Part shown: piece after piece, positions 2,636-16,931 of the stretch
How the letters are laid out: every line of letters starts with the position of its first letter
How positions within the stretch are numbered: the first letter of the stretch is position 1
Origin: a virus
Lineage: Duplodnaviria > Heunggongvirae > Uroviricota > Caudoviricetes
Virus record (IMG/VR): IMGVR_UViG_2802429229_000003
Strand: one strand, 5' to 3'
DNA length: 41,511 nucleotides
The notes under the pieces: generated by a model
Told to the model about the DNA's origin: nothing
Seen by the model: the letters and a program-made list of their open reading frames with translations, nothing else
The model's database searches: none
Translations under genes and position numbers: made by a program

Positions 2636-2973
2636 CAGATCACCACTTCGTCAAACTGACACGAAAAATCGGTATAGGTGATATGTTCTGTCGCTGACCA
2701 CGTTCGACACACCACTCTGATTTTTCTGTTAATACCCGGCGGGCGCCAAAAAAAAGATTTATAGCCTTCATGCCGGGCTAAAAATTTTTCAAATGAATCA
2801 CGTTCATTCGCCTCAACTTTGAAATCACAGGTGAAAACGCGCAGAGAATGATTAAGTCCATTTGGACTTCGTTGCTCATAACCATCACCAAATCTTACAG
2901 TTTTTATCGATGGTTTATTTTCTGTTTTCATTCCATCCTCTGGTAACCAGTGAAATTCTTCCGTATTAGCCAC
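2635..2973 (-). CDS. M: Minor tail protein M
   Basis: 112-aa ORF between the tape measure gene and L with motif [10 protein letters not shown] as in lambda M; start overlaps the tape measure stop. Confidence 0.75.
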
Positions 2974-5900
2974 TTAACATTCCCCCATCACGTCGCATAT
3001 TTAACAGATTGCCCTGCACCCGCTGATCAACCATCCCCATAAGTGCTTTTATTGCCTGAGGGCCAATCTCTCCATTCTGGCCGTCATTTTGAATAGTGAT
3101 TTGGTATACAGGGGCATAGGTAATATCTCCGCCTCCATTACCACTTTTACTATTAATAGCTCTGACACCAAGAGAACCATCGGAAGTTCGTGTTAATGGC
3201 ATAATGGCTTCCGGTCCAGCCTCACCAAAAACACCAGCCCCTTTTGCAAAAGCAAAAAATTGCGGGGAATCATAAATACCGTTCGAATACGTGCTCAATG
3301 ACGGAGACTCATAAACACCGCCCTTTGCATTCGGAATAAATTTACTAATAGCACTCCCGATAGTTCCTAAAATCCCCCCAGAAGAACTGTTACTAATGCT
3401 GTCGAAAATCCCAGTAATTGAAGCCTTTAATGCTATTCGACTAAGATCCGAAATCACGGAAGTAGCGAAAGAACGAAAATTTGCCTTGCCTGTCGTGACA
3501 AAATCACCCAGCGCATCGGTCATTCCATCAAACATCTGAGTCGTGGTTGATTTTATCTGCTCACTGATATCCTTAGTGTCATCCAGCCAGTTATTGAATC
3601 CCTGGGAGGCACCACTAACCCAGTCTCCTGCCTGAATATCGAGCTGCTCGTTTTTCTGTCTGACAATTTCTTTTTCCCGTTCCAGAGCATCATTCAGAGC
3701 CTGCATTTTCTCTTGAAAAACATGATCTGACATTCCACGGGATTTATCTGCATAGTCACGTTCAAGTTGCAGACGCTGATTGTTATATCCATGTTCAATC
3801 CGCAGTAATTCCTGCTGGCGTTGCTGATTTTTATCGCCAACCCCATAACCAGCAATCTGAATATCATACCCCTGCTGACGATTATCAATCGAAGCCTGCA
3901 ATGAATCACGCCATGCTGTTATTTCGGCGGATTCCTTGATTAGCCTGTTATTTTTTTCAATCGCAACATTTTTCTCCATCAACGTGGTTATTTCTTCCCG
4001 GTGTAAGAGAAGCGATTTCTGATCCTGGGTTAATTTCGATGATGGTCGTGACTCTAGGTCGGCAATCCGCTGACGCCACTTAACCAGTTCCTGTTCAGAG
4101 GAACTTAATTTAACGGTCAACTCAGCTTGTGAACTTAGTAACGCATTCTGTTGATTCAGATGATCAATCATTCGTTGGGCTGCATCATCAGAATAATCTT
4201 TCGCCTTTGGTTGCTTTGGATCTTTATAACGCTCATTTATTTGAGCGATAAGATTATTATATTCTTCCTTTGAATACTGATTCTTTAGCTTTTCCAGTTT
4301 TGCAAGTTCACTAGCTCTCTGCTGCTCCCGGGTCTGATATTGTTTTGAAAAGGCATCTGCTCTCTGTCTGAGTTCAATTCCTTCCTGTTGTCGCTTGTTG
4401 TAATCGTTTATTGATGAATTTAGTACGTCCTGAGCAATTTTTTCTGCTTGAAGTACGCCCAATTGCTGCTTTAATCGTGCCAGCCTTTTATTTTGAGCTC
4501 CGCCATCTCCAATGCCACCTAACCCGAAAACTCCGGGTCGGGTATTTTTTTCTATTTCATCAATTTGACGGAGAACATCTGAGATTTTTTGATCAAGGGA
4601 GGCCTCACGGCCAATATCCAGCATGGAATCCCATGCCCATTTTGCGGAGTCTGCGACAGCTTTCCATGCAGTCTCAAGATAACCAAGATTTTCTTTAATC
4701 TGGTTGGTGCGCTGGATCATTGAGGATGAGTATTCTTCTGTCGCAATGCGGGCGGCCTCCTGCTGGTTCCCTTCATCCTGTAGCGCCTTAATCTGGTTAT
4801 AAGTCGCAAGTGTCAGAAAATGGTACTGATCATTAAGTTTTGATATGGCACTGACAGGATCCTTTGCAATTTCATTGAAGTCATTAACCAGTTGTTCGGT
4901 TGATATTCCTGTTACTTCGCTCGTTTTTACTATCGCTGTCGTCACTTGCTCCAGCGAACTGCTCGCTACCTTTCCCGAACGCACAAGCTGATTTAATACT
5001 GCCGCCGCAGCACCAGTTGTCGAATCAGCCGCATTCCCGGCACGTTGAGCTATATCGCCCAATTGCCCGCTGGTTGTCCCCAACTGATTTCCGGTAAGAA
5101 TAAGAGATTTATTAAATTCGTCCTGCTCCTGAGAGCCTTTATAGTAAGCCAGTCCTAAGACCCCAACGGCTGCTGCGGCCAGGGTAAAAGGATTAATTAA
5201 TCCCAGCACATAAGAACCTACACCTTTGATCGCCGGGCCAATCCCACCGAACATATCTTTTAGCTGGCCGCCCTGCTGCATTAACACCATAAATGGCGAC
5301 TGACCAGTGGACAACCCAACAACAATATCCGTCATTTGTGCAGGCAACATGCGCATAGCAAAAGCCGTTTGTTTTGCCGACATTCCGGTTTTGCTTAATT
5401 GTGATTGAGTAACCTCAAGCTCACTCCGCATAGCACGAAGTTTTCCAGAAAGCTCCTCATACATTTCAGGAGAAAGCATCCCCTTAGCTTTTGCTTCATT
5501 GAGCTGTTTCTGTTGTTCTACCAGACGATTAAAAGCAGTTCCGACAGGATCAAGTTGAGCAATCAGACGTTGCAAAGCAACAACCTGTTCATCATGCGCT
5601 TTTGCTGCTTCTCGCTCTGCCTGAGCCTCTCCAGTAAGCTCTCGCCGTGTTTCCTGTATTTTTCGGCTATAATTCTCAAACTGAGAACCATTTATTTTCC
5701 CGGATGCAAACGCAGCATTAAGTTCATCATGCTGTTGTTCAAGATTTCTTAGCGCCGCAGCCAGAGGGTCGATCTTGTCCAGCATTCTTTGAAAGGCCTG
5801 AGCCTGCGCTTCCTGCTGGGCGGCAGCAAGTTTTCCGGCCTTCTCGGCTTCTCTCTGCGCTTGCGCAACCCCGCTCAATTCCTCTGTGGTTTCATTAAGT

Positions 5901-6199
5901 TTACGGACAAGAAATTCATATTCTTCTTTATCAATAAGCCCTTTATCGAAAAATTTCTTTAATTCAGAATAGCGTCGACCGACAGTATCAATTGCGGCAC
6001 CAACTGGATCAATAGCTGCTTTTAATTTTGCGAGCGCGTTCTTCTCATCTTCTGTTGCCTTAGTCACTTTCCCTGCGCTATTTGCAGCAGTTTCCCCAGC
6101 CTGCGTCATTTTGACTAATGAGGAGGTCAGATTGTCAGCATTATTTTTCGCTCCAGTGCTATCAATAATTATTGCGAGACGCGAGGTTTGCTCTGCCAT
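2966..6199 (-). CDS. Tail tape measure protein (H-position), 1077 aa
   Basis: Very long coiled-coil-rich ORF between the G/T chaperone genes and M; AGGAG RBS before ATG at 6199 (MAEQTS). Longer than the 853 aa I recall for lambda H. Confidence 0.85.
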
Positions 6200-6215
6200 T
6201 TATTAAAACTCCTGA

Positions 6216-6248
6216 CAACAAAAAACCCACCGCGAAGTGGGTTTCAGG
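6216..6248 (-). terminator. Intrinsic-terminator-like hairpin about 17 nt upstream of the tape measure start
   Basis: Minus strand reads AAACCCAC-UUCGCG-GUGGGUUU followed by UUUGUUG; lies inside the 165-nt gap between the GT stop (6365) and the tape measure start. Confidence 0.4.
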
Positions 6249-6364
6249 CGACATAATAGTAGATATAGCGATTACGAGGCCACGCAATGCTTTTCTCCAG
6301 GAGCATCATCGATTTAATTAAAGACACCATCACATCTCTGTAACAGAGTGTACGTAATTAACAA

Positions 6365-6685
6365 CTACACACACTGCTCCTGAAAATACTGGTCATCCAG
6401 TGCAAAGATCACTGCTTCAAATTCATCGCGCTCAATCAATACCGGATGAGTGGCTAAATATTCATTTATCTCTGTCAGAGATAAAGGCAAAGGCACCCCA
6501 GCCATTCCAGCATAACGTCGGGCACGGGATATTACCGAATAGGCGTACAACAACTCCTTAAGCACCGGGTCTATTTCTGGTTCCGGTATCGGTGGCAACC
6601 TGAGTTTTTCTCGCTTCCATCTTGCCTTTTCCCCCCTTTCTCCCCCGAACTCCGATAACCACCGCTGGGCAGCTATGGCTTTTTT
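6365..6685 (-). CDS. Tail assembly chaperone GT, -1 frameshift extension (T part); fusion product continues from G
   Basis: The -1 frame entered at the slippery heptamer stays open to a stop at 6365 and is the frame of the 6365-6598 ORF; no stop codon between the slip site and that ORF. Confidence 0.6.
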   Translation of the reverse strand, partial: KKAIAAQRWLSEFGGERGEKARWKREKLRLPPIPEPEIDPVLKELLYAYSVISRARRYAGMAGVPLPLSLTEINEYLATHPVLIERDEFEAVIFALDDQYFQEQCV

Positions 6686-7134
6686 ATCGTATCCTGCTTC
6701 TGCTGCTCTTTACCCTGGGCGATGCTGGCTGCTTCTGCAAGGATCTGCCAGTACAAATCTGGATTCTGCTTAAGCAGCGCGATCCCTCGTTCTGCCGTAT
6801 ATTCCAGTGCAACCTCAACACCATTAACCAGTTCACCAACCCCTTTCCAGTCTTTCAGCAGATAACGAGCGGCATTATCAATGAGTAAATCATCAACAGA
6901 ATCCACCTCGGAAACCTTTGAAATATCAAACTCCTTCGTTCCGACGTGCAAACTGGCATCCATTTTCTCAATGTGGCGACGGATTAATGCATTACGGGAG
7001 CGATACTGATCGTTATCGCTGCTTGCCACCAACAGTTTTAACCCGTCTACAGGTTTTAAGTCCTTCATTGGCGTAAACCAGCGTTCTCCACCAATGAGAA
7101 TTTTCTGATTAAGAATAAACATCCATAACCTCAT
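6673..7134 (-). CDS. Tail assembly chaperone G (zero-frame product)
   Basis: 153-aa ORF immediately upstream of the tape measure region; ends ...IKKP-stop directly after the slippery heptamer; RBS-like GAGG before ATG at 7122 or 7134. Confidence 0.65.
   Translation of the reverse strand: MRLWMFILNQKILIGGERWFTPMKDLKPVDGLKLLVASSDNDQYRSRNALIRRHIEKMDASLHVGTKEFDISKVSEVDSVDDLLIDNAARYLLKDWKGVGELVNGVEVALEYTAERGIALLKQNPDLYWQILAEAASIAQGKEQQKQDTIKKP
6679..6685 (-). other. Programmed -1 ribosomal frameshift slippery heptamer A-AAA-AAG
   Basis: Minus-strand codons AUA AAA AAG CCA UAG; heptamer A_AAA_AAG three codons before the G stop, the conserved position for tail chaperone frameshifting. Confidence 0.6.
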
Positions 7135-7182
7135 TCAATGCGTCCCCCTGTAGGGCAGTACCACAGGAGGAATAACGGAAAA

Positions 7183-8145
7183 TCAACTAATCGCCTCAGC
7201 ACTGGCTTTTGCGATCACGGCAGCCGGGGAATTTTTTTTTCTGGTTATCGTAGGTGCTTCATCTGCTGCGGTAATGCTCAATTGAACCTGGATAATGTCG
7301 CTATTACCCCCATCAGGCCATTCACCTGACACCTGAACCTTCGGGAAACTGAAAGTGTATGCCCCCTCTCCATTCGAAAGCGTGAAGCTGAACGGAACTG
7401 TTTCTCCAGTCAGTGTTTTACTCCAGATTTCCCACGCGGCTTTAGACCATGAAAGCGTCACCGTACCGGACGGTGTAAAAGTAGTCGGAATATTTGCTCC
7501 TGCATAAGGCGAGCCAGTCCCGATACAACGCTGTGTCTGGAGTTTGTTATCGAACTGAATATCAAAACTGTCGATACAAAAACCGTTACCTCCGGCAACA
7601 CCATTCAGGCTTACTGCTGAAACCTCCTTAAACGAATAACGTAGCTTTCCTGCACTATCCACAGGTTCGCCTTTGATAAAATTCGTATCATCGGCCTTTG
7701 ATTCCCAGTCCAGTCCGGCAAAGGTTACGGTCGCTGTAATATCGCCGTCGTTAGGGATCTGCATTTTCCATGAGCCAACCTGCGCTCCTCTGACGACAGA
7801 GGCAATTCCGACATCGGACGCATAGGTCGCCAGAGAAAATGTTATTCGCTCATTCCCCATTGTCAGAGAATCGCCTGACCATTCCGCGCCGAAACAGGAT
7901 GCAAGAAAATCATCATGTTGACCCCAGCGAAATTTGGTACCAACATCACCGCCGACATCCACAGTGCCAGGCGTCGCCCCCTGAGCCATCCGGGAGCCAC
8001 CAATCTCATTATTTTCGCCTTTATTCTGGGTGGGTTTTACTCCCCAGCTTGTGCGTTTTAATAAACTCCAGTCACCACTTGCTGGCGTAGTGCCTGCAAC
8101 CGTCTCCCGGATAAATGCCGAGATAACCTTTGCACCTGAACTCAC
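7183..8145 (-). CDS. Major tail protein (V-position), 320 aa
   Basis: GTG start at 8145 preceded by UAGGAGG RBS; lies between the U-position gene and G. Assignment is by position and size; sequence is not lambda V as I recall it. Confidence 0.6.
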   Translation of the reverse strand: MSSGAKVISAFIRETVAGTTPASGDWSLLKRTSWGVKPTQNKGENNEIGGSRMAQGATPGTVDVGGDVGTKFRWGQHDDFLASCFGAEWSGDSLTMGNERITFSLATYASDVGIASVVRGAQVGSWKMQIPNDGDITATVTFAGLDWESKADDTNFIKGEPVDSAGKLRYSFKEVSAVSLNGVAGGNGFCIDSFDIQFDNKLQTQRCIGTGSPYAGANIPTTFTPSGTVTLSWSKAAWEIWSKTLTGETVPFSFTLSNGEGAYTFSFPKVQVSGEWPDGGNSDIIQVQLSITAADEAPTITRKKNSPAAVIAKASAEAIS

Positions 8146-15865: not shown

Positions 15866-16931
15866 TCCTTACTCTGGCATCAACCACATTAATATTGATC
15901 GCCACAGGCTGGGGATGTTCATTATCTTCCACCGTTTCGATCTCTTTGCGCAGCTTCTGGTTTTCCATTCTGCGCCGTTCAATTTCCAGTTCCTGTAGCC
16001 GTTTATCTGCACATAAAGCCCCGCCAGCAGAAAACAAACGCAACAATTCACGCCGGGCGGCAGCCTTATCCTCCAGCAGGATCTCAACGCCGAATTTTCC
16101 GAATTTTGCCCCTGCATATAATTGCCGCGCATCCCCATCAAGCAGAGTGGTATCAGCCATATAAAGCTGTCCCGTTCCCTCACCGCAGCACTTCGGGCAG
16201 TCCGGATTGGGTATGGCGTTATCAACAAAGCCGAGGCCTCCATATTCCGGTTCGGGTTTGCCATCTCTGGAAGCCTGCGCCGCTGCCTTGTCGAATTCTG
16301 CTATATCGCGCCACTGGTAGAGATGATTCTCGCCCCAGCAATAACGGCAGTTAACACGGCGAAATTGTGCAAGCTGATTGGGGTCGGCCAGGACAATAGC
16401 CATCAACTGACTCACTAGTAAATCCAGGTCTGCGGTATAGCGTTTCTGGTACTGATTGCGGAAGTAGCTGATAGCGCGAAAAACCCTGGCATTTCTAAGC
16501 ATACGACTGGCGTTGCTGTTAGCTGTCGCACCTTGCCCCTCATAACCGGCTAGTCGGTACGCCTCTGTCGGCTTTTTACCCTGAGCAACAAGCATCGCAA
16601 ACTTAGCCTGCTGGTCAGAAATGCCGAATTCATCGGGACAGAACGAAAATTCCTCCGCGTCGCCCTCATTCAGGCCCGCATCGAATACTGGCTTTTTTTC
16701 CTGAGATTTTTCGTTCCGCTTTTGTGCAGTCTGCGCAGATTTTTTCTGCGCACTTTTTTGCGCAGTTTTGCACATTTCTGTCTGCGCATTTTTCGGAGTT
16801 TTTTTGATGTAACGACGGGCTGTTGCGTAATTCAGTCCCCTTGCTTCACACCATGCCACCGGAGATATACCGGAGCGGGTGTATTCAGCAATATACTCCT
16901 GCTGCAACGCCCCCCAGTCCGGTCTGCTCAT
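15837..16931 (-). CDS. Terminase small subunit (N-terminal HTH plus terminase small-subunit region)
   Basis: HTH-like ISPVAWCEARGLNYATARRYI and motif KFAMLVAQGKKPTEAYRLAGY...ASRMLRNARV; overlaps the large terminase start. Confidence 0.65.
   Translation of the reverse strand: MSRPDWGALQQEYIAEYTRSGISPVAWCEARGLNYATARRYIKKTPKNAQTEMCKTAQKSAQKKSAQTAQKRNEKSQEKKPVFDAGLNEGDAEEFSFCPDEFGISDQQAKFAMLVAQGKKPTEAYRLAGYEGQGATANSNASRMLRNARVFRAISYFRNQYQKRYTADLDLLVSQLMAIVLADPNQLAQFRRVNCRYCWGENHLYQWRDIAEFDKAAAQASRDGKPEPEYGGLGFVDNAIPNPDCPKCCGEGTGQLYMADTTLLDGDARQLYAGAKFGKFGVEILLEDKAAARRELLRLFSAGGALCADKRLQELEIERRRMENQKLRKEIETVEDNEHPQPVAININVVDARVRSDEDDLSDA

Follow-up and report, generated by a model that had tools for sequence, protein, structure and literature searches.

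Programmed frameshifting in tail chaperone gene pairs of the G/GT type was reportedly treated by Xu, Hendrix and Duda in 2004, and the G/GT pair of phage lambda is said to have been dealt with by Levin, Hendrix and Casjens in 1993 and by Xu, Hendrix and Duda in 2004, 2013 and 2014. By such a shift, long-tailed phages obtain two tail chaperones, one short and one long, from a single gene pair; in pairs of this type, G and a minor GT fusion are made in vivo, in a ratio that tail assembly requires. A different cassette, of the dnaX type, comprises a stem-loop located 5–8 nt after the slippery heptamer and a Shine-Dalgarno-like element approximately 10 nt upstream of it. In dnaX, the upstream Shine-Dalgarno-like element and downstream hairpin accompany frameshifting of approximately 50 % (PMC3711429). 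In lambda, the binding partner of G is the tape-measure protein and that of T is the major tail protein, neither is found in virions, and the ratio of G to GT is approximately 30:1 (PMC5009743).

The heptamer A_AAA_AAG has also been reported from a prophage tail chaperone. The HK97-like chaperone cluster A_AAA_AAG_25 of Sharma et al. 2014 (PMC4066793), which contains ECs1801 from prophage Sp9 of Escherichia coli O157 Sakai, was classed as a safely inferred true frameshift. Frameshifting of 6–7 % was obtained in reporters for two genes of an HK97-like prophage tail-chaperone cluster (PMC3711429), which is probably the same cluster as that of ECs1801, an A_AAA_AAG user.

The DNA analysed here, referred to as the window, is a stretch of 41,511 nt from a member of the Caudoviricetes (IMG/VR record IMGVR_UViG_2802429229_000003). 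It contains a pair of overlapping reading frames, G and T, and the data presented below argue that these are decoded, as in lambda, by programmed −1 ribosomal frameshifting, a reading to which we assign a probability of roughly 0.9.

Genomic context and protein families

The G/T pair is located between the gene for the tail tube protein and that for the tape-measure protein, all on the minus strand, and a tail terminator gene is also found upstream of the pair. The immediate neighbours are as follows.

7183..8145, minus strand: upstream neighbour, gene for the major tail (tube) protein (Pfam Phage_tube_2, E = 9e-32)
2966..6199, minus strand: downstream neighbour, tail length tape-measure gene (TMP_2, E = 1e-81; Tape_meas_lam_C; TMP_4; PHROG 24)

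The counterpart of the upstream gene in E. coli genomes is annotated 'phage tail tube protein'. The gap between T and the tape-measure gene is 165 nt in length and contains a terminator-like hairpin. It is apparent that the G/T pair occupies the canonical G/GT slot of the tail module.

Profile searches are in agreement with this position for G, which matched PHROG 313 ('tail assembly chaperone') with an E value of 4e-46 over residues 5–153. Positions 173–246 of the same 258-position profile matched T weakly (E = 0.0099), which suggests that the profile was built partly from fused GT proteins. T also matched PHROG 1189 (E = 1e-36), a family with no assigned function, and Pfam Phage_TAC_18 with 20.6 bits, below the gathering cut-off of 27; weak matches to Phage_TAC_18 were observed in 10 of 25 homologues, the best with an E value of 1.5e-4. 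No match to G was found in the local Pfam-A or NCBIfam profiles, and the precomputed domain of its homologues is PF27119. A sequence search of the PDB returned a chance-level match alone (E = 1.9). When a structural model of G was compared with 48,164 chains, its top solved-structure neighbour was the HK97 tail assembly chaperone (PDB 2ob9), and the named viral neighbours were mostly tail or tape-measure chaperones. Confidence in the model of the T domain was low (pLDDT 67) and did not justify a search by fold.

Anatomy of the G/T junction

The features of the junction, as deduced from translation and frame analysis, are listed below.

6673..7134, minus strand: G, zero-frame product and tail assembly chaperone ('ydaY' family of E. 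coli), from ORF translation
6679..6685, minus strand: slippery heptamer A_AAA_AAG, from sequence and phase; zero-frame codons AUA AAA AAG
6676..6709, minus strand: G/T overlap, from frame analysis; the zero frame closes at 6675..6673
6365..6679, minus strand: T extension in the −1 frame, 104 codons (6679..6368) plus the stop codon at 6367..6365

Translated from the ATG at 7134, G has 153 aa (17.4 kDa) and the C-terminus ...QDTIKKP, encoded by ...GAT ACG ATA AAA AAG CCA and followed by the stop codon TAG at 6675..6673. On sequence grounds, G more probably starts at the ATG at 7122: Met5 is invariant across 36 homologues and is the first residue in most of them, and a GAGG sits 6 nt 5′ of this codon. 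The protein initiated at 7122 would have 149 aa (16.9 kDa).

Relative to G, the heptamer is in phase 2 and therefore reads as A_AAA_AAG, in the X_XXY_YYZ register, three codons short of the stop of G. In the −1 frame, a TAA occupies 6712..6710; the open stretch that begins at 6709 runs across the heptamer as far as the stop at 6367..6365 and comprises 114 codons, of which 104 follow the slip. A productive −1 shift is possible only within the 34-nt overlap, and a single canonical heptamer is found there. In the predicted GT fusion, base 6679 would be read twice, i.e. join(7134 or 7122..6679, 6679..6365), to give a product of 256 or 252 aa (29.3 or 28.7 kDa) with the junction-spanning sequence ...QDTIKKAIAAQR. 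Cleavage by trypsin is predicted to yield AIAAQR and WLSEFGGER from the stretch that separates the heptamer from a TTG codon discussed below; both peptides would come from the frameshift product only.

A preliminary description of this DNA had stated that the G ORF ends AUA AAA AAG CCA UAG, that A_AAA_AAG lies at 6679–6685 on the minus strand, and that the −1 frame beyond it stays open for about 105 codons to 6365. All three statements are borne out by the translation, phase and frame analyses, and no −1-frame stop codon is present between 6598 and 6679, as had been judged by eye.

The heptamer by itself is not informative. AAAAAAG was observed 18 times in the window, versus an expectation of 16.3 ± 3.9, so its occurrence alone is no more than chance; moreover, 106 or more open codons follow approximately 17 % of random positions. 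The copies were therefore assessed by combined criteria: location in register within a long ORF, no more than three codons from the stop of that ORF, with more than 100 open −1 codons after it. Only one of the 18 copies, that at 6679..6685, which is preceded by 150 open codons of its ORF, has all of these properties, and the comparative data that follow place the slip site far beyond chance.

Conservation of the slip site among relatives

The comparison set consisted of 95 related loci, representing 55 distinct sequences from Escherichia, Citrobacter, Raoultella, Pantoea, Siccibacter and others. A canonical heptamer was found at the matching aligned position in 54 of the 55 distinct sequences, A_AAA_AAG in 51 of them and G_GGA_AAG in three. 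It is situated exactly 164 nt after the WKGVG motif, or 167 nt in one relative (L016). The sole exception, L020, has an ambiguous base just 5′ of the site (X in the translated G ORF), and the zero frame was lost there in the scan. AAAAAAG is also present at the equivalent site in four Klebsiella-type phages.

Within the heptamer, columns 4–7 are invariant and columns 1–3 vary together. Exchange of one heptamer for the other is accompanied by a synonymous change in a Val codon (GTA AAA AAG to GTG GGA AAG), and by this third-base change the X_XXY pattern is kept. AAAAAAG and GGGAAAG are among the three most shift-prone heptamers in E. coli and are of near-equal strength: with no stimulator, the IS911 stimulator and the IS3 stimulator, frameshifting was 0.29, 4.3 and 39 %, respectively, for AAAAAAG, and 0.28, 3.8 and 43 % for GGGAAAG (PMC4066793, Table S3).

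The position of the zero-frame stop wanders among the relatives, to +3, +21, +75 or +105 nt past the heptamer. The −1 ORF is 100–119 codons long in 51 of the 54 relatives and shorter, 39–61 codons, in the other three (L019, L021 and L042). Remote relatives retain at least A_AAG at the junction, which reads C_GCA_AAG_UAA in Erwinia phage Gungnir39 and G_GAA_AAG in Pseudomonas phages. Since A_AAG alone is kept in these phages, the wider family might conceivably rely at its core on slippage of a single tRNA-Lys and not of a tandem pair. The sequence comparisons thus support a slip site that is functional, not incidental.

These data also bear on two other explanations of the junction. The heptamer holds six consecutive A's, and insertion of one further A by RNA polymerase slipping on this run would give exactly the −1 frame, so that the altered mRNAs would be translated through into T; slippage of this kind is known for Thermus dnaX, on a run of nine A's (PMC3711429). 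A run of six, however, is well short of the length at issue, and the three relatives mentioned above, as well as Acinetobacter phages, have G_GGA_AAG at the site, which with only three A's cannot sustain polymerase slippage but is an excellent ribosomal slip site. The property that is conserved, X_XXY_YYZ re-pairing in the correct codon register, is one of relevance to ribosomes only. Polymerase slippage is accordingly regarded here as very improbable.

It might also be supposed that no recoding occurs, and that the two frames represent a decayed gene, an old frameshift mutation or a coincidence in a defective prophage. The Rac prophage of E. coli K-12, which is defective, does contain the region, and the databases hold rare cases in which G and T are fused in one frame (P0001, 240 aa; P0002, 220 aa), but a single uninterrupted G–T ORF was not seen in 54 of the 55 distinct sequences. 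The split and its junction heptamer are kept in at least six genera, down to approximately 55 % protein identity, each frame is under purifying selection on its own side of the junction, and the tail module in the window is apparently complete. A decayed gene would neither keep a perfect heptamer nor swap it for another perfect one, and we consider the absence of recoding to be extremely improbable. Programmed −1 ribosomal frameshifting is the preferred reading, and the earlier proposal that this locus reproduces the conserved G/GT frameshift of long-tailed phages is supported both by its slot between the tube and tape-measure genes and by the presence of the slip site in 54 of 55 sequences.

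Switch of coding frame and status of T

The frame in which protein sequence is conserved changes at the heptamer. On its 5′ side, mean pairwise amino acid identity was 0.68 in frame 0 versus 0.40 in frame −1, and on its 3′ side 0.37 in frame 0 versus 0.71 in frame −1. The per-position entropies were 0.22/0.19/0.86 in frame 0, 5′ of the heptamer, and 0.45/0.40/0.98 in frame −1 for the 27 codons 3′ of it; from the heptamer onward, the variable position is the third codon position of the −1 frame. Conservation of the −1-frame protein starts at the heptamer, 27 codons 5′ of the codon that has been called as a start.

6596..6598, minus strand: TTG, start of a 77-aa 'hypothetical protein' according to the ORF caller and PGAP; probably not a real start

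The ORF listed from this TTG, 6365..6598, is the 3′ section of the open −1 frame. The TTG was present in 18 of 37 distinct sequences, the others having CTC, CTA or similar in its place, and no ATG was found among the first 45 −1-frame codons. No start codon for T is conserved. The T starts selected by gene callers vary widely, with resulting products of 60–138 aa.

The possibility to be weighed against these results is that T is an independent small gene, translated from the TTG at 6598 or a later codon, and that the heptamer is incidental. Existing annotation would be in keeping with such a gene, as a separate 'hypothetical protein' is recorded by PGAP and by GenBank submitters in E. coli strain 64.1 (77 aa) and in phage SPF_0923 (61 aa), and many stand-alone T-like ORFs are found in the databases. 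The annotated starts of the T homologues, however, are spread over approximately 80 codons, a scatter that is expected where no real start exists. The TTG is abutted by an AGG with no spacer, it is missing from about half of the sequences, and no ATG is available nearby to replace it. In addition, the stretch of 27 codons from the heptamer to the TTG shows protein-level conservation in the −1 frame (KKA[IL]EAQKWLSEFGGEQGEKAKW...), which would be unexplained if this stretch were untranslated. An independent T gene is therefore considered improbable, and the TTG at 6596..6598 is probably not a real start. The sequence data support instead the view that T is a C-terminal extension without a start of its own; the preliminary description had taken the 6365–6598 ORF to be a fusion extension and not a gene, and both the onset of −1-frame conservation at the heptamer and the patchy distribution of the TTG are in its favour.

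Search for stimulators of frameshifting

The preliminary description had proposed looking for a stimulatory RNA structure downstream of the heptamer, and no conserved structure was found by folding of single sequences, consensus folding or an Rfam scan. The fold of the 119-nt downstream stretch was not superior to those of shuffled controls (z = +0.43). A consensus computed with RNAalifold from 14 diverse sequences amounted to −2.2 kcal/mol, with four pairs that overlap the heptamer and no compensatory changes, and a conserved downstream stimulatory RNA was rejected on the basis of this weak fold and the lack of covariation. The Rfam scan, of 6200–7300 at E ≤ 10, gave two chance-level matches and no frameshift element. 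Two local elements were considered individually.

6652..6678, minus strand: hairpin of the E. coli clade, CCAUAGCUGCC-CAGC-GGUGGUUAUCGG, from folding (approximately −11.8 kcal/mol)
6692..6695, minus strand: AGGA, Shine-Dalgarno-like by sequence, 6 nt 5′ of the heptamer, a short spacing

The hairpin begins at the first base after the heptamer, with a spacer of 0 nt. No compensatory changes were seen in it, and variants L075 and L079 break pairs (two in the case of L079); it is probably not a stimulator. When the variants were folded individually, the hairpins obtained were clade-specific (−6 to −17 kcal/mol) and, with few exceptions, started no more than 2 nt from the heptamer. The AGGA is present in most relatives and missing in L013 (AAAGAC) and L016 (CAAGAA), and may possibly be a weak stimulator. 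With a hairpin that has no spacer, and an AGGA that lies close to the heptamer and is not universal, the locus does not have a cassette of the dnaX type. Of the comparison with dnaX drawn in the preliminary description, the shared heptamer thus stands, and the dnaX stimulators are not conserved here.

Proposed decoding of G and T

Under programmed −1 frameshifting in the tail module of this prophage, most ribosomes would reach the UAG stop codon of G and produce a chaperone of approximately 17 kDa. A minority would slip back by one base while two tRNA-Lys are paired with the AAA-AAG of A_AAA_AAG (6685..6679); the two tRNAs would re-pair on AAA-AAA, and translation would go on for 104 codons in the −1 frame. 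The outcome would be a G–T fusion of approximately 29 kDa, with an N-terminus identical to that of G. If the analogy with lambda holds, the G part of both products would coat the tape-measure protein, the rare T domain would recruit the tail tube protein, and neither G nor GT would be retained in the virion.

We infer that the GT fusion is made in vivo, probably at a level of a few percent, and by analogy the binding partners of G and T would be those of lambda. The yield of GT could nevertheless be very low, since A_AAA_AAG without a stimulator gave only approximately 0.3 % frameshifting in a reporter (PMC4066793).

Occurrence and annotation

G is the ydaY gene product of the E. coli Rac prophage, and the region is present in 1,073 of 5,426 complete E. 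coli genomes (approximately 20 %). In all of the E. coli and phage records of the close family that were inspected, the annotation consists of 'protein YdaY' and, beyond that, no more than a 'hypothetical protein' whose start is arbitrary, and a joined G–T coding sequence was found in none of them. This separate annotation of G and T reflects annotation pipelines, not evidence. No description of the G/T slip site was found in the literature in which ydaY and frameshifting are both mentioned, and a literature search returned nothing linking a tail assembly chaperone frameshift to the Rac prophage.

The Rac prophage of K-12 retains an intact cassette, with the 3′ portion of ydaY, A_AAA_AAG and a T frame that is open throughout but carries no annotation. 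That K-12 makes a frameshifted YdaY–T protein, if ydaY is translated at all, seems rather unlikely. Were it to do so, this would be an unrecorded natural case of −1 programmed frameshifting in K-12, in addition to dnaX and the IS elements.

The main value of these results lies in annotation. Recognition of the slip gives ydaY a function as a tail assembly chaperone, removes a spurious small gene and adds a product of 252–256 aa. The locus also offers a clean natural case in which two equally shift-prone heptamers have been exchanged at one site, with no conserved RNA stimulator. The established picture of frameshifting and tail assembly is left unchanged.

Comparison with known systems

E. coli dnaX, the source of tau and gamma, has the identical A_AAA_AAG and the same tRNA-Lys slippage. 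It differs in that the shifted product is the shorter one in dnaX and the longer one here.

Like the present locus, ECs1801 is a G gene of an E. coli prophage that ends with A_AAA_AAG (...AGA AAA AAG TAG), and a −1 extension of approximately 100 codons lengthens its product from 124 to 226 aa. In contrast to the present case, its stop codon follows immediately after the heptamer, and a predicted downstream structure has been reported for its cluster (PMC4066793), whereas no conserved one was found in the ydaY family. The protein family is unrelated to that of G (BLASTP E = 1). Identity of the present locus with the ECs1801 cluster of Sharma et al. 2014 was therefore rejected: the heptamer is the same, but the proteins are not related.

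Acinetobacter phage vB_AbaS_TRS1, in which the chaperone is annotated as a coding sequence joined from two pieces (TRS1_18/TRS1_19), is a remote homologue. Its T-part region is 38.8 % identical to T of the window (tblastn, E = 4e-6), and related Acinetobacter phages also match G of the window, at approximately 31–34 % identity. The genes are arranged in the same order, with a −1 slip site at the equivalent junction; the TRS1 heptamer, however, is G_GGA_AAG, and its G/T overlap of approximately 100 nt is longer than that of the window. The frameshift is already annotated in TRS1, but not in the E. coli ydaY family.

The likeness to lambda is seen in the arrangement. In both cases, an overlapping pair of ORFs is situated between the major tail and tape-measure genes, a −1 slip takes place, or is predicted to take place, near the end of G on a heptamer that ends in A_AAG, T lacks its own start, and there is no evident strong RNA stimulator. 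The heptamer in the window is A_AAA_AAG and the product sizes differ from those of lambda; the lambda heptamer, G_GGA_AAG, is nonetheless found in some relatives of the window. The G/T pair is a well-supported but ordinary case of the −1 programmed frameshift of long-tailed phages.

Organization of G, the slip site and the T frame

The features relevant to this analysis are as follows.

7183-8145, minus strand: tail tube gene (Pfam Phage_tube_2, E = 9e-32), upstream of G; the tail terminator gene lies farther upstream
7134 (ATG)..6673, minus strand: ORF of G, the zero-frame tail assembly chaperone gene, 153 aa by translation, with its TAG at 6675..6673
6685..6679, minus strand: heptamer AAAAAAG, in phase 2 of the G frame, i.e. 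A_AAA_AAG
2966-6199, minus strand: tape-measure gene, downstream (1,077 aa; Pfam TMP_2, E = 1e-81)

The 3′ end of G reads ...GAT ACG ATA AAA AAG CCA TAG on the minus strand, and the heptamer lies in the X_XXY_YYZ phase of the G frame, the register required for tandem -1 slippage. Phase and translation thus confirmed the G terminus (AUA AAA AAG CCA UAG) and the minus-strand heptamer at 6679-6685 that had been proposed in the preliminary description, as well as a -1 frame open past the heptamer to 6365. After a TAA at 6712..6710, that frame has no further stop between 6709 and the one at 6367..6365, so that a productive -1 shift is possible in just 34 nt; this overlap contains only one canonical heptamer, A_AAA_AAG. 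Post-slip reading would continue for 104 further codons (6679..6368). The mechanically listed ORF at 6365..6598, with a TTG start, corresponds to the distal three quarters of the open -1 frame.

Within window positions 7120-7134 (minus strand) there are two candidate starts for G, of which the ATG at 7122 is probably the true one, rather than that at 7134. Met5 is shared without exception by 36 homologues, and the majority of them start there; GAGG is situated 6 nt upstream of the ATG at 7122, and residues 1-12 of the G structure model have pLDDT values below 50.

Chance expectation

The heptamer alone, or a long open frame alone, is unremarkable. AAAAAAG occurs 18 times in the window, as compared with 16.3 +/- 3.9 in shuffled sequences (no enrichment), and at least 106 open codons follow approximately 17% of random positions. 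The combination of features at 6685..6679 is, however, found in none of the others: this copy is in register within a long ORF, no more than 3 codons from the stop of that ORF, with a long -1 frame beyond. The sole other in-register copy within a real gene, at 16698..16692, is followed by a -1 stop after 10 codons.

Conservation of the slip site

Related loci were fetched from one-genome-per-species bacterial contigs (14) and from viral contigs (80); with the window added, 55 distinct sequences of the G 3′ end and T (the -1-frame extension) were compared. A canonical heptamer was found at the same aligned position in 54 of these, A_AAA_AAG in 51 and G_GGA_AAG in three (Raoultella and two Pantoea), at a distance of 164 nt from the conserved WKGVG motif (167 nt in locus L016). 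In L020, the remaining sequence, the scan lost track of the zero frame at an ambiguous base just upstream, translated as X in the G ORF. Four more cases of A_AAA_AAG were observed in four Klebsiella-type phages. Gene decay or coincidence is excluded, as the split arrangement is conserved in different genera.

Exchange of A_AAA_AAG for G_GGA_AAG replaces Lys with Gly in G and is accompanied by a synonymous change of the Val codon (GTA AAA AAG to GTG GGA AAG), so that it is the X_XXY pattern, and not the amino acids, that is preserved. Heptamer columns 1-3 change together, while columns 4-7 are invariant. With no stimulator, the IS911 stimulator or the IS3 stimulator, frameshifting was 0.29, 4.3 and 39% for AAAAAAG and 0.28, 3.8 and 43% for GGGAAAG (Sharma et al. 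2014, PMC4066793 Table S3); both are among the top three shift-prone heptamers in E. coli, with near-equal efficiency (PMC4066793), and E. coli genes strongly avoid A_AAA_AAG in that register (z = -10.1; PMC4066793 Table S3).

A second in-register heptamer, G_GGA_AAA, is situated 30 nt upstream of the main one in 15 of the 55 distinct relatives (carriers L009, L074-L091 and L096). The -1 frame is already open there, and a second, weaker slip site is possible in those relatives. The equivalent spot in the window (~6709-6715) reads G_GGT_AAA and includes a -1-frame TAA, so the second site is closed. Two database proteins, P0001 (240 aa) and P0002 (220 aa), are single-frame G-T fusions through small indels near the junction, P0001 entering the T frame approximately 9 codons before the heptamer. 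Either the A-rich tract was misread in sequencing, or these may be natural mutants with a constitutive fusion.

Switch of coding frame at the heptamer

Conservation on either side of the heptamer. Entropies derive from 37 distinct segments; identities are mean pairwise amino-acid values for 11 diverse sequences (55 pairs; 81 nt upstream, 84 nt downstream).
Entropy at codon positions 1/2/3, upstream, frame 0 (57 nt): 0.22 / 0.19 / 0.86
Entropy at codon positions 1/2/3, downstream, frame -1 (27 codons): 0.45 / 0.40 / 0.98
Identity in frame 0: upstream 0.68, downstream 0.37
Identity in frame -1: upstream 0.40, downstream 0.71

Depending on lineage, the distance from the heptamer to the zero-frame stop is +3, +21, +75 or +105 nt. 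The -1 ORF comprises 100-119 codons in 51 of 54 sequences, and 39-61 codons in L019, L021 and L042. Among the 37 distinct sequences, no ATG was found in the first 45 T codons and no T start codon is conserved; the TTG at 6598 is present in only 18, and T starts in database gene calls are scattered across ~80 codons. Taken together, the frame-specific conservation, the wandering stop and the startless T show that selection has acted on a predicted polypeptide whose reading frame switches at the heptamer.

Independent initiation of T, as implied by gene calls that give it a start of its own, is contradicted both by this absence of a conserved start and by coding in the -1 frame that is already conserved ahead of every candidate start. 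The ORF at 6365-6598 is therefore better described as a fusion extension, as had been suggested. A change of frame by transcriptional slippage on the A run is unlikely: the run here is six, well under the nine at which such slippage becomes selectable in many genomes (PMC1088944), and the G_GGA_AAG variants could not use it.

Downstream RNA structure

A stimulatory downstream RNA structure, suggested earlier as a check on the frameshift, was sought by folding and by an Rfam scan, and no conserved one was found. The 119 nt downstream of the heptamer have no folding advantage over shuffled sequence (z = +0.43). A consensus fold computed from 14 diverse sequences has 4 pairs overlapping the heptamer (-2.2 kcal/mol, no compensatory change), and the Rfam scan gave no match. 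An E. coli-clade hairpin (6678..6652, approximately -11.8 kcal/mol) begins at the first base after the heptamer, and its pairs are broken by natural variants. Stimulators typically lie 5-9 nt downstream of the slip site. AGGA is present 6 nt upstream of the heptamer in most sequences, but not all.

Gene families and annotation

G matches PHROG 313 ('tail assembly chaperone'; E = 4e-46) at profile positions 13-149 of 258, and T matches it weakly at 173-246; from these different stretches, PHROG 313 appears to include full-length GT fusions. T also matches PHROG 1189 (no function assigned; E = 1e-36). Pfam Phage_TAC_18 falls below its curated threshold on T and was seen in 10 of 25 homologues; confidence in the T structure model is low.

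Many E. coli prophages match the region at 98-99.8% DNA identity and have G annotated as 'protein YdaY'; the region was found in 1,073 of 5,426 complete E. coli genomes. In the defective K-12 Rac prophage, the 3′ two thirds of G remain, together with the heptamer and the entire open T frame; in E. coli K-12 DHB4 (L003, locus 3993-4660), the 5′-truncated ydaY abuts ynaK, A_AAA_AAG is in register and the fully open T frame of 104 codons is without annotation. In database protein P0041 (246 aa), YdaY is fused to a ParB N-terminal domain, which is the annotated domain of ynaK. Among the inspected E. coli and phage records of the YdaY close family, no joined G+T CDS was found, T being either unannotated or listed from an arbitrary start as a 'hypothetical protein'.

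Neighbouring sequence features

A run of nine A's (7232-7240, minus strand) lies in the tube gene, 50 nt short of its stop (...ACC AGA AAA AAA AAT TCC...). Where the pattern was found, the tract has nine A's in 32 loci and eight in 6; a separate check gave seven in E. ruysiae (L005). The tube gene of E. coli strain 64.1 (eight A's) is called 'frameshifted' by PGAP. As nine A or T is the length of significant transcriptional slippage in many bacteria (PMC1088944), the tract may yield mixed tube-protein C-termini or rescue 8-A alleles. The alternative frames stop within 7-14 codons, so a large extension is not involved.

A terminator-like hairpin, GAAACCCAC-TTCG-CGGTGGGTTTT with a T-rich tail (6222-6245, minus strand), lies within the 165 nt that separate the stop of T (6365) from the start of the tape-measure gene (6199), an unexpected location within a late tail operon. 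In Citrobacter-type relatives, a comparable GC hairpin and T-run are present between the tube gene and G.

Comparison with known systems

Remote homologues of the family were found in Acinetobacter and Pseudomonas phages. The chaperone of Acinetobacter phage TRS1 is already annotated as a joined CDS, with G_GGA_AAG in the overlap. Pseudomonas phages Aurca01 and phiPSA1 (L099, L102) have the non-canonical junction G_GAA_AAG, and Erwinia phage Gungnir39 (L101, 1980-1995) has C_GCA_AAG followed directly by UAA, which suggests that the stop codon may aid slippage there. A_AAG is the only universal part of the junction across the remote homologues, which hints that single tRNA-Lys slippage on A_AAG could be the common denominator.

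With the heptamer retained in nearly all relatives and the coding frame switching there, the earlier claim of a conserved G/GT frameshift is well founded. We place the probability at about 0.9 that the mechanism is the standard G/GT programmed -1 frameshift, in a YdaY/Rac-type tail module, with a predicted fusion product. The kind is well known; what is new is a frameshift unrecorded in the inspected annotations of this prophage family.

The same A_AAA_AAG heptamer characterizes the A_AAA_AAG_25 tail-chaperone cluster of ECs1801 (E. coli O157 Sakai prophage), a safely inferred frameshift (Sharma et al. 2014, PMC4066793), although the proteins belong to a separate family unrelated to YdaY-family G. 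Benchmarks for efficiency are ~0.3% for the bare heptamer in a reporter (PMC4066793), 6-7% for two genes of an HK97-like prophage tail-chaperone cluster (PMC3711429), probably that of ECs1801, and a G:GT ratio of roughly 30:1 in lambda (PMC5009743). Given the lack of a conserved stimulator, the site is unlike dnaX and resembles lambda G/GT, with predicted low-level, heptamer-dependent slippage.
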